A stretch of 64,000 nt of DNA, taken from Escherichia coli (GTDB lineage: Bacteria > Pseudomonadota > Gammaproteobacteria > Enterobacterales > Enterobacteriaceae). Each line of letters begins with the position of its first letter. The stretch's first letter is position 1. A program made the translations under genes and the position numbers. Below the pieces are notes generated by a model. It did not search any database, was not told the origin of the DNA, and saw only the letters and a list, made by a program, of their open reading frames with translations. Location of the stretch: assembly GCF_029227855.1 (NCBI RefSeq), contig NZ_CP074356.1; one strand, given 5' to 3'. Of this stretch, positions 19,297 through 25,350 are shown in pieces.

Positions 19297-19314
19297 ATGA
19301 CAGAGTGATGACAG
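19297..19314 (-). promoter_or_regulatory. Pho box (PhoB-binding site) upstream of phoH
   Basis: Minus-strand reading CTGTCATCACTCTGTCAT: two CTGTCAT repeats with 11-bp periodicity. Confidence 0.7.
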
Positions 19315-19334
19315 TGATGAAAAAAGCTGTGTGC

Positions 19335-19488
19335 TTTCAGCAGGATTCGCATCAGGCATCAGCGCACGAACGCCGGATGCGGCGTGAACGCCTGATCCAG
19401 CCTACCAAACCCGCACCGATTGTAGGCATGATAAGACGCGCAAGCGTCGCATCAGGCATCTGCGCACGAACGCCTTATCCGCCTAAAC
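19335..19488. repeat. Cluster of REP (repetitive extragenic palindromic) elements between efeB and phoH
   Basis: Repeated gcatcaggcatc(a/t)gcgcacgaacgcc...gatgcggcgtgaacgcc(t/g)tatcc units typical of E. coli REP/BIME. Confidence 0.8.
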
Positions 19489-19491
19489 ACA

Positions 19492-20763
19492 TTAAACCCG
19501 CAATAACGCGCTTCCGAGATAATCGTTCGCGTCCTTCACTCCCGGCAGCGAAAAAAAATAACCACCGCCGATAGGTTTAACGTATTCCTCCAGCGCTTCG
19601 CCATTGAGCCTTTTTTGTACTGTCAGGAAGCCTTTTTCCAGATCGTGTTGATAGCAGACAAACAGTAGCCCCATATCCAGTTGTCCGGAGTTGGTGACGC
19701 CCAACGAATAACTGTAGCCACGACGCAGCATCAGGCTGGACTCACTCTCTGGCGTGCGGGGATTCGCCAGCCGGATATGGCTGTCCAGCGCAATCACCTT
19801 CCCCTCCGGATCGCTGGCGTAATCGGGAACATCATGCTCATGCTGCATTCCCAGCGGCGCACCGGTTTGTTTGTCGCGACCAAAAATCGTCTGCTGTTCT
19901 TTCAGTGGCGTTCTGTCCCAAAACTCCACCCGAAACTGAATCAACCGCACCGCCTGATAGCTGCCACCGATTGTCCACTCAGGCTCCTGCTGATCTGCCG
20001 TTACCCACACCACTTTTTGCATCAACTTATCATTCTGGCTATCGGGATTGGCAGTGCCGTCTTTGAAACCCAGCAAATTTATCGGCGTCTCTTTGCCTTT
20101 ACTACGCGCCGCGTGATCGGAAATAAACCCTTCCCGCTTCCAGCGCACACTGAGCAAATCCGGCGTGTGTTTGATGATATCGCGCAGCGCATGGATCACC
20201 GTATCCTGGGTGTTGGCGCAAATTTGTAGCAACACATCACCATGACATAACGCCGCATCAAGCGAGTCATTGGGGAAACGCGTCATCTTCTGCAGCTTTT
20301 TCGGCATCTGCGACGCAAGGCCAAAGCGCTCATCAAACAATGAGTGGCCCACCGATAATGTGATGGTGAGATTATCGGGCGCAATGTAGCCGCCAAGAAT
20401 GCCGGAATCGAGTGGTGGCAGGCGCGGATTTGGCGTTTCTGGTGCCGCTCCGCCCTGAGTCAGAAAAGAAAAACGCTGAGTCAACAAGCGAAACAACCGT
20501 TCAAGATCGGCTTTATCGCTGGCAAGCACATCAAACGCCACCAGCATCATTGCGGCCTGTTGTGGCGTCAGGATCCCTGCCTGATGCTCACCATAAAACG
20601 GCTGCTTCTCATTGCGTGCATCCGGTGAAAGCGTCCCCGGTGCACTTTGCGTTTTTTGTGCATGAGCGACCGGACAACTTCCTGCCAGCGCCAGTGCACC
20701 AATCCCTTTCAGTAAACGTCGGCGTGACGGTTCATTCACGCCGTTTTCATCTTCATACTGCAT
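19492..20763 (-). CDS. efeB: Tat-exported DyP-type haem peroxidase / deferrochelatase EfeB
   Basis: 423 aa; twin-arginine signal ([17 protein letters not shown]). Confidence 0.92.
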
Positions 20764-20768
20764 AACGC

Positions 20769-21896
20769 TTAATCCAGCCCCAGCACACCGCGAAGTTGCG
20801 CCAGATCTTCCGCCAGCGCAGTAATCGGCCCTTTCAGCGCATTACGGTCAGCATCGGTCAATTTGTCGTAGGTTTCAAAACCGTCTTTAGTACGGTATTT
20901 CGCCAGAATGGTATCGACCTTTTTGAAGTTGGCATCGACTTTTGCCAGCAGTTCCGGGTTGGCTTTTTGTAGTTGTGGACGCAGCAGATCGACAATTTTC
21001 TGCGAGCCTTCAACGTTAGCCTGGAAATCCCACAGATCGGTGTGGCTGTAGCGATCTTCTTCACCGCTGATTTTGCTGGCTGCCACTTCCTCAATCAGTC
21101 CGGCTGCGCCGCCGACCACTTTTGACGGAGGGAAAGCCAGTTCACTGATGCGTTTTTGCAAATCGACCACATCGGTATAAAGCTGGTCGGCATACTTATC
21201 CATCCCTTTAGTGGTGTTATCGCCAAACAATGCTTTTTCCAGACGGTGGAAACCGGTGAATTTTGGATCGGCGGCTTTTTGCTCGTAATCATCTTCACGG
21301 GCGTCAATGCTACCATCCAGATCGGAGAACAGTTCAGCAATCGGTTCAATGCGCTCATAGTGCTGGCGCGTCGGCGCATACAGTGCTTTCGCTTTTTCGA
21401 TATCGCCTGCTTTAATAGCGTCGGTAAAGGCTTTGGTGTCGGTCACCAGCTGCGTGGTTTCCGCCATGACATACGCTTTATATGCAGTAATTGCACCACC
21501 GAGACTTAACAGCGCATCACTTTGCGCCGCATCCGCCGTTGCTTCACCTTTGACGATCAACTTCCCTTTCGGGTTAGTCAGCAGACCGCAGGTCATATCG
21601 TATTCGCCAGGCTGTAAATTCGCCGTCATTTTCTGGCTAAAGCCAGGGGCGATATTTTCTCGCTCTTCCACCACCATCACGCCTTTGAGGATCTCCCACT
21701 CCAGCGCCTTCTGGCTGTGGTTCTGAATAATGAACTGTGTTTTCCCGGCGTTAACCGTAATGGTCATCGGTTCGCACTGCTTATCCGTCACGGTGACTTT
21801 GACTTGCGGAATATCGGCGGCGTTAGCCATAAAAGCAGAAGAGAACAGCGCAGCCACGCTCAACTGCAATGCGTTACGGCGGAAGTTAATGGTCAT
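20769..21896 (-). CDS. efeO: Periplasmic iron-uptake protein EfeO
   Basis: 375 aa with signal peptide; gene order efeUOB. Confidence 0.92.
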
Positions 21897-21953
21897 GACG
21901 AGACTATCCCTTTAAAGTATGTTGTAACTAAGCAAGAGTTTGCGTCGTATTTG

Positions 21954-22784
21954 TTACGCGGAGCGAGACGCTGTCGCCCCTGCGCGTGGTGGCAGAGCAA
22001 ATGCCACCAGCGCCGGGATGAGATAAATAAACCAGACGGCGACTTCGCTGACACTTGGCGCTTCCTGATAGCCAAAAATCCCTTCCATCAGCGTGCCAAA
22101 CAGCGAGTGAGTTGAGAGCACCGCACTCATATCGAAGGCGATTTCCTGAAAGTGGTTCCACAATCCGGCTTCATGAAATGCGCGAATGGCACCAGCTGCC
22201 AGCCCAGCGGCGACGAAGAGAATAAACAGGCTGGTCCATTTAAAAAATGCACCAAGATTGAGGCGAATACCGCCCCAGTAGAGCAGGAAGCCGAGCACCA
22301 CGGCTGTAGCAAGACCGAGCATTGCACCCAGCGGCGGCCAGATCCCGACATCTTGTTGAAATGCCGCCAGCAGGAAAAAGACCGACTCCAGCCCTTCCCT
22401 TGCAACGGCAAAAAAGACCATCATCACCAGCGCCCAGCCATGATGATTTCCACGCTGCAATGCGCTATCGACTGCCTGCTCCAGTTGTACTTTGACGTTG
22501 CGCGACACTTTGCGCATCCAGAAAACCATCCAGGTAAGGATCACCACGGCGATCACCGCCACGATACCTTCAAACAGTTCCTGTTCTTTTTGCGGAAATT
22601 CGCCGGTGGTTTCGTTAATGAAGATACCCAAGCCCAGGCACAACGCAGCGGCAAGCAACACGCCAATCCACATCACACCAATCCATCGGCCTCGCTGGGT
22701 ACGCTTAAGATAGCTGGCAATCAAACTGACAATCAGCGCGGCTTCAAGTCCTTCGCGCAACATAATGAGAAATGGAACAAACAT
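21954..22784 (-). CDS. efeU: Ferrous iron permease EfeU (Ftr1 family), intact
   Basis: ORF 21954..22793; start at MFVPFLIML (276 aa); two REGLE motifs (MLREGLEAA, VAREGLESV). Confidence 0.9.
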   Translation of the reverse strand: MFVPFLIMLREGLEAALIVSLIASYLKRTQRGRWIGVMWIGVLLAAALCLGLGIFINETTGEFPQKEQELFEGIVAVIAVVILTWMVFWMRKVSRNVKVQLEQAVDSALQRGNHHGWALVMMVFFAVAREGLESVFFLLAAFQQDVGIWPPLGAMLGLATAVVLGFLLYWGGIRLNLGAFFKWTSLFILFVAAGLAAGAIRAFHEAGLWNHFQEIAFDMSAVLSTHSLFGTLMEGIFGYQEAPSVSEVAVWFIYLIPALVAFALPPRAGATASRSA

Positions 22785-22841
22785 GCCACCCACCCTTAAA
22801 CGTTTTTCTGAGTCAATCTATGCAAAGAAAAGTAAATCGCA

Positions 22842-22860
22842 GTGATAGCGATTATCATTA
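22842..22860. promoter_or_regulatory. Candidate Fur box in efeU promoter
   Basis: gtgatagcgattatcatta resembles the GATAATGATAATCATTATC consensus; about 60 bp upstream of efeU start. Confidence 0.6.
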
Positions 22861-23437
22861 CGGCAAAGAAAAATACAAGCGGAATGTTTATAAAATGATG
22901 TTGGAATGTAAACAAAGAGAGGTAATGCCAGGGGATATAAACGATTATTCCAGGTACAAAGATGGGATTGTTTACAACGAGCCATGTGTTCTTGCCAGAT
23001 GCCGCGTAAACGCCTTATCCAGCCGACAAAACTGTCCAGACTCAATGCATCAGAGCTTCCATGTAAAACTGATAAGCGGGTGTATCAAGCAATTTCGTCC
23101 ATCCGCGATTATCAAATCTAACTTTTTGCCCGGAACATAATAACAGCTCGGGTGTTGGTGGCGTCAAAGTCGCTGAAGCGTTCCCCGAAGGCCGGGGCAG
23201 CCCACATGGATGTGGGCTGAGGGCGCGTCTTACAGGACATTACCTCGCGCCCGACCCGGTAGCCGAAGGGGATAAGCTGAAGGTACCGCGCAGCGGCGAT
23301 TTTGTTCGCCAGAGCCCGGGGTGCAGGGGGTGGCGGCGATTGGCCGCCCCCTGCACCATTCAATTTATATGGCGAGGCACATTAAGGGAGCGCAACCCGC
23401 TGCTGAAGCCAAACAAAACCGCCGCAGGCTAAGTCCC

Positions 23438-24946
<1,509 letters not shown>

Positions 24947-25129
24947 CTAAAGTCTCCAAAAAATTATTATCGGCAATGTCGAAACTTGCCGTTATATCTG
25001 CCACCGGAACGGGGTAGCAGAGTTTATGTTTTACCAGGGCGACCGTATCCTGCCGGAAGCGCTGGTTATTCACAATCGATTTAACACACCATTTACATTA
25101 AATTTTAGTGCTCAGCGACACTATTTTTC

Positions 25130-25350
25130 ATCAGGTTGCACTCTCTCACATTTTTTGCGGTTGCACCTTTCAAAAATGTTAACTGCCGCAGAGAAAAAGT
25201 CTGAGTTATTTTTTTAATCCCTGTCATATCGATTTCTTTTATTAACATTTCATTCATTTTTAAGCTTGCTACGCAGGTCACATTTAACATGGTTGCACAA
25301 AGTTGCAACATCATGGATATTTCACGATAACGTTAAGTTGCACCTTTCAG
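25130..25350. promoter_or_regulatory. put control region with multiple GTTGCA PutA operator motifs
   Basis: GTTGCA occurs at least five times (ggttgcactc, ggttgcacctttc, ggttgcacaaagttgcaacatc, agttgcacctttc) between divergent putP and putA. Confidence 0.8.

Follow-up and report, generated by a model that had tools for sequence, protein, structure and literature searches.

The window analyzed here, a 64-kb stretch (64,000 nucleotides) of Escherichia coli contig NZ_CP074356.1, carries an efeU gene that is free of the frameshift found in K-12 and is directly followed by efeO and efeB. The locus is very probably an ordinary, intact efeUOB operon of the form typical for the species, repressed by Fur through a box located at positions -78 to -60 from the efeU start codon, and the whole system is expected to be active.

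The efeU gene and its operon partners

The efeU coding sequence (21954-22784, minus strand, with the ATG at 22784) is uninterrupted and encodes a 276-aa Ftr1-type inner-membrane iron permease. In the list of open reading frames, it is contained in a minus-strand ORF of 279 codons that begins with GTG (21954-22793), so the annotated ATG lies three codons inside. The protein matches the Pfam family FTR1 (PF03239) over residues 1-275 with 300.3 bits (cut-off of 25.3), the NCBIfam EfeU equivalog model NF041756 with 331.2 bits (cut-off of 255), and TIGR00145 with 351.7 bits (cut-off of 303.8). Translation followed by a regular expression search located two REGLE sequences of the REXXE type, one at residues 10-14 (22743-22757, minus strand; codons CGC GAA GGA CTT GAA) and the other at residues 129-133 (22386-22400, minus strand; codons AGG GAA GGG CTG GAG). 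The initial annotation had described efeU as encoding a full-length Ftr1-type permease with both REGLE motifs, and this description holds. EfeU of the window is 100% identical (276/276) to WP_000497942.1, the protein of O157:H7 and E. coli W. Given this identity to the reportedly functional EfeU of O157:H7, the protein would be expected to mediate Fe2+ uptake at low pH.

The two partner genes are located directly downstream on the same strand. The efeO gene (20769-21896, minus strand), which is separated from efeU by 57 bp, encodes a 375-aa periplasmic protein with cupredoxin and M75/imelysin domains. It matches NCBIfam model PRK10378 over its entire length (774 bits, positions 1-375 of 375), Pfam Cupredoxin_1 and Peptidase_M75 are also matched, and the HxxE motif is present as HRLE at residue 217. 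The efeB gene (19492-20763, minus strand) follows after a further 5 bp and encodes a 423-aa Tat-exported DyP-type haem peroxidase/deferrochelatase, which matches TIGR01412 with 618 bits. As for EfeO, the match covers the full length of the family model and is far above the cut-offs. The N-terminus of EfeB contains the twin-arginine sequence SRRRLLKG, and residues D235, H329, and R347, which we take to be the catalytic and haem-ligand residues, are present. In the proposed mechanism, EfeU would act as an Ftr1-type inner-membrane permease, with its two REXXE motifs binding iron and passing it on, and would cooperate with the periplasmic cupredoxin/M75 protein EfeO and the Tat-exported DyP haem peroxidase EfeB. 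The system would import ferrous iron when conditions are aerobic, acidic, and poor in iron.

An operon can be intact in sequence yet inactive or functionally unimportant in a given strain, either through lineage-specific substitutions in EfeB and EfeO or because Feo, siderophores, and other iron systems make it redundant. EfeB of the window differs from its O157:H7 and K-12 counterparts by 8 residues each, EfeO differs by 2 residues from O157:H7 and by 3 from K-12, and deletion of efeOB in the ExPEC strain PCN033 left virulence unchanged (PMC7549933), so that the operon may contribute little to physiology. However, the retained Tat motif and the three EfeB residues, the full-length matches of EfeO and EfeB to their family models, and the identity of EfeU to the O157:H7 protein argue against inactivity, and we regard a silent or dispensable operon as improbable in this strain.

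The K-12 frameshift and the occurrence of intact efeU

The annotation of K-12 MG1655 (NC_000913.3) lists efeU (b4490) as a pseudogene. According to PMC3577903, the loss of 1 bp in codon 36 makes the K-12 gene cryptic, the O157:H7 gene is complete, and Fe2+ uptake in acid medium requires full-length EfeU. When the minus strand of window positions 21940-22960 was aligned with the K-12 locus, 13 substitutions and one 1-bp gap were found over 1,011 aligned K-12 bases. The gap, which is the sole indel in the efeU alignment (column 282), corresponds to nucleotide 106 of the coding sequence, the first base of codon 36. At the boundary of codons 35 and 36, the window has a GG dinucleotide (22678-22679, minus strand), and K-12 has a single G, which is the lesion already published for K-12. 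The K-12 reading frame runs into a stop at codon 37, and restoring the G yields a protein that is identical to EfeU of the window. The frameshift that the initial annotation had ascribed to K-12 is thus real, and the alignment to MG1655 b4490 revealed neither this deletion nor any other frame-disrupting difference in efeU of the window. With codon 36 free of the K-12 deletion, EfeUOB as a whole should be active in the strain analyzed here.

The 947-bp efeU region was found in 5,417 of 5,426 complete E. coli genomes. A 60-base K-12 probe that spans the deletion matched exactly in 368 of 5,379 complete genomes; five of these 368 were sampled, and all five were K-12 derivatives (ER1709, AML003_ev02, J53, DCM272-43-68, and 'K-12'). 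Among the matches listed, the remaining full-length matches to this probe span 61 bases, which corresponds to the extra G, and the 61-mer of the window itself is present without mismatch in 3,637 genomes. At the site of the deletion, a derivative of E. coli B is full length as well. Intact efeU is the norm for the species, and the K-12 allele is the exception. With K-12 being exceptional, models that are based on this strain underestimate the iron-uptake capacity of E. coli.

The intact gene, together with other differences, had initially been taken as pointing to a wild-type, non-laboratory lineage. A natural lineage is shown on other grounds: window positions 12000-36000 are 100% identical over 24 kb to JNEC-KY178, a human clinical isolate from Japan, and other clinical isolates are ~99% identical over the same region. 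We rejected the use of an intact efeU to mark wild lineages, as E. coli W, a laboratory/industrial strain, has the identical intact gene. Being the species norm and also present in W, the intact gene excludes only K-12 and is silent on the distinction between 'wild' and 'laboratory' strains.

The Fur box and the region upstream of efeU

In the gene orientation, the 19-mer that best matches the Fur consensus GATAATGATAATCATTATC is CGTAATGATAATCGCTATC (22844-22862, minus strand), located at -78 to -60 from the efeU ATG. The two agree at 15 of 19 positions; no other site in the 64 kb reaches 15 matches, and 0.23 such sites are expected by chance, as estimated from 100 composition-matched random sequences. 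This bears out the earlier proposal of a Fur box about 60 bp upstream of efeU, for which the string gtgatagcgattatcatta had been given (22843-22861, plus strand, 59 bp from the ATG). The box also matches the ChIP-exo motif TGAnAATnATTcTCA at 10 of its 13 specified positions. In an alignment of seven diverse strains, K-12, W, O157:H7, and three or four further strains have the same box sequence. Between -78 and the ATG, the only difference is one T-to-C change at -46, whereas positions -79, -80, -81, and -90 vary, and sequences beyond about -130 are unrelated between lineages. At the sequence level, this conserved segment next to variable upstream DNA is a phylogenetic footprint. A terminator-like hairpin that was returned by a scan at 22835-22853 was rejected as a terminator, since it corresponds to the Fur-box palindrome within the leader.

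Published Fur ChIP-exo data collected under iron-replete conditions contain peaks in the spacer upstream of efeU in MG1655 (1080516-1080528), W3110 (1081715-1081727), and W (1188592-1188604) (PMC10164565, Dataset 2). With efeU annotated as starting at 1081778 in W3110 and at 1188655 in W, the peaks of these two strains map to -63 to -51, and the box of W3110 is located at -78 to -60. The 13-bp peak intervals overlap the Fur box by only 4 bp, with the peak centre ~12 bp downstream of the box centre. The older efeU start coordinate of MG1655, which is presumably 1080579, would give the MG1655 peak the same offset of -63 to -51. In the published data, efeO and efeB are part of the 36-gene core Fur regulon, and deletion of fur de-represses both genes in nine strains, BL21 among them, with log2 fold changes for efeO ranging from 1.06 to 7.67 (PMC10164565). 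The Fur-2 iModulon contains efeU and efeO. By extension from strains with an identical box, Fur would be expected to occupy this site in vivo in the strain analyzed here, and its loss would be expected to de-repress the operon. It is highly improbable that the box is a chance AT-rich palindrome and that the iron regulation of efeUOB is indirect: the match of just 15 of 19 positions and the displacement of the ChIP-exo peaks would fit such a reading, but the box is the best site in the window and lies in the 653-bp spacer before an iron-uptake operon, it is unchanged across diverse strains while the adjoining upstream sequence varies, and both Fur occupancy of the spacer and de-repression in fur mutants have been published for several strains (PMC10164565). 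For MG1655, W3110, and W, the published ChIP-exo data also record Fur peaks inside genes at pgaB or pgaABCD (PMC10164565); pgaABCD falls within window positions 12000-36000.

A scan of positions 19300-23500 with a strict sigma-70 consensus returned no promoter-like sites. A speculative promoter can be proposed by hand at 22851-22878 (minus strand), in which a weak -35 hexamer (TTGTAT) and a good -10 hexamer (GATAAT) are separated by a 16-nt spacer. This reading places the -10 hexamer within the Fur box, and the tentative assignment is the basis of the proposed occlusion mechanism. Transcription would begin upstream of efeU, and Fe2+-Fur bound at -78 to -60 would repress it, probably through occlusion of the -10 region. 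High pH would add repression through CpxAR, in line with the published finding that CpxAR represses efeUOB at high pH (PMC3852070), and the CpxR regulon in RegulonDB includes efeU. In the stretch that separates the Fur box from the start codon, the window contains a CpxR-box-like sequence, GCAAAGAAAAGTAAA (22822-22836, plus strand), with one mismatch to GTAAA-N5-GTAAA. Six such one-mismatch sites are present in the window against 3.7 expected, which is not a significant enrichment, and the position of GCAAAGAAAAGTAAA may fit the published CpxAR control. Overall, identical or near-identical sequences in other strains, considered together with the literature, suggest that the operon would be active in this strain, regulated by iron, and responsive to pH, with induction in acid.

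The remainder of the putP-efeU spacer (22785-23437) differs among strains. It is 653 bp long in the window, 542 bp in K-12, and 219 bp in strain WL297, and in O157:H7 it holds an inserted hypothetical ORF of 1,344 bp; only the last ~130 bp before efeU can be aligned across all seven strains compared. A 123-bp segment of the window (23202-23324) has no K-12 counterpart, and 11 K-12 bp are missing at the 23354/23355 junction. The 123-bp segment is part of the TRIP1b repeat locus. The K-12 copy of TRIP1b has been described as partial, with 125 bp deleted internally (PMC10888264), and TRIP1 seems to be more complete in the window than in K-12. A GC-rich hairpin with a 15-bp stem that includes 12 G-C pairs (23320-23357) is located immediately beyond the 3' end of putP, inside or adjacent to TRIP1, and may be the putP terminator. 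REP-like palindromes (…GGATAAGGCGTT.ACGC…) are found at ~22991-23027, upstream of the efeU promoter, and at 19380-19491, downstream of efeB. The hypervariable sequence upstream of the 78-bp leader could conceivably adjust the expression of efeUOB or the termination of putP differently in each lineage, although we give this idea little credence. If it were true, 'intact' efeUOB operons would differ in regulation between lineages. On the other side of putP, the spacer between putA and putP contains a 69-aa ORF (25105-25314, minus strand), which is the hypothetical protein WP_000979516.1 in JNEC-KY178; in the corresponding spacer of K-12, the tiny ymdG is annotated instead.

Comparison with known iron permease systems

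The yeast high-affinity iron permease-oxidase Ftr1p/Fet3p is similar to the system of the window in that EfeU is a member of Pfam FTR1 and contains two REXXE motifs, and PMC3577903 gives the similarity between EfeU and Ftr1p as ~25%. The partners are different: in EfeUOB, they are the periplasmic cupredoxin/M75 protein EfeO and the DyP peroxidase EfeB, and not a multicopper oxidase. Within E. coli, the efeU pseudogene of K-12 MG1655/W3110 (b4490; efeU_1/efeU_2) has an identical Fur box, leader, and 'repaired' protein, and it differs in having one G fewer at codon 36, leading to the stop at codon 37, whereas the window retains this G.

EfeUOB (YcdNOB) of E. coli Nissle 1917 is said to be the subject of Grosse et al. 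2006 (Mol Microbiol 62:120), and Cao et al. in 2007 reportedly found EfeUOB of O157:H7 to be functional. The latter system (YcdNOB; Cao et al. 2007, Mol Microbiol 65:857) shares with the window the same EfeU, the efeU-efeO-efeB gene order, the Fur box, and the 78-bp leader. The two differ at 2 residues of EfeO, at 8 residues of EfeB, and in the putP-efeU spacer, which is unrelated upstream of about -130. The analysis confirms that the strain has the standard form of the Fur-regulated low-pH ferrous-iron uptake system, which matters little beyond annotation. In summary, the system of the window is the known EfeUOB (YcdNOB) system, already known since 2006-2007, and does not depart from it.
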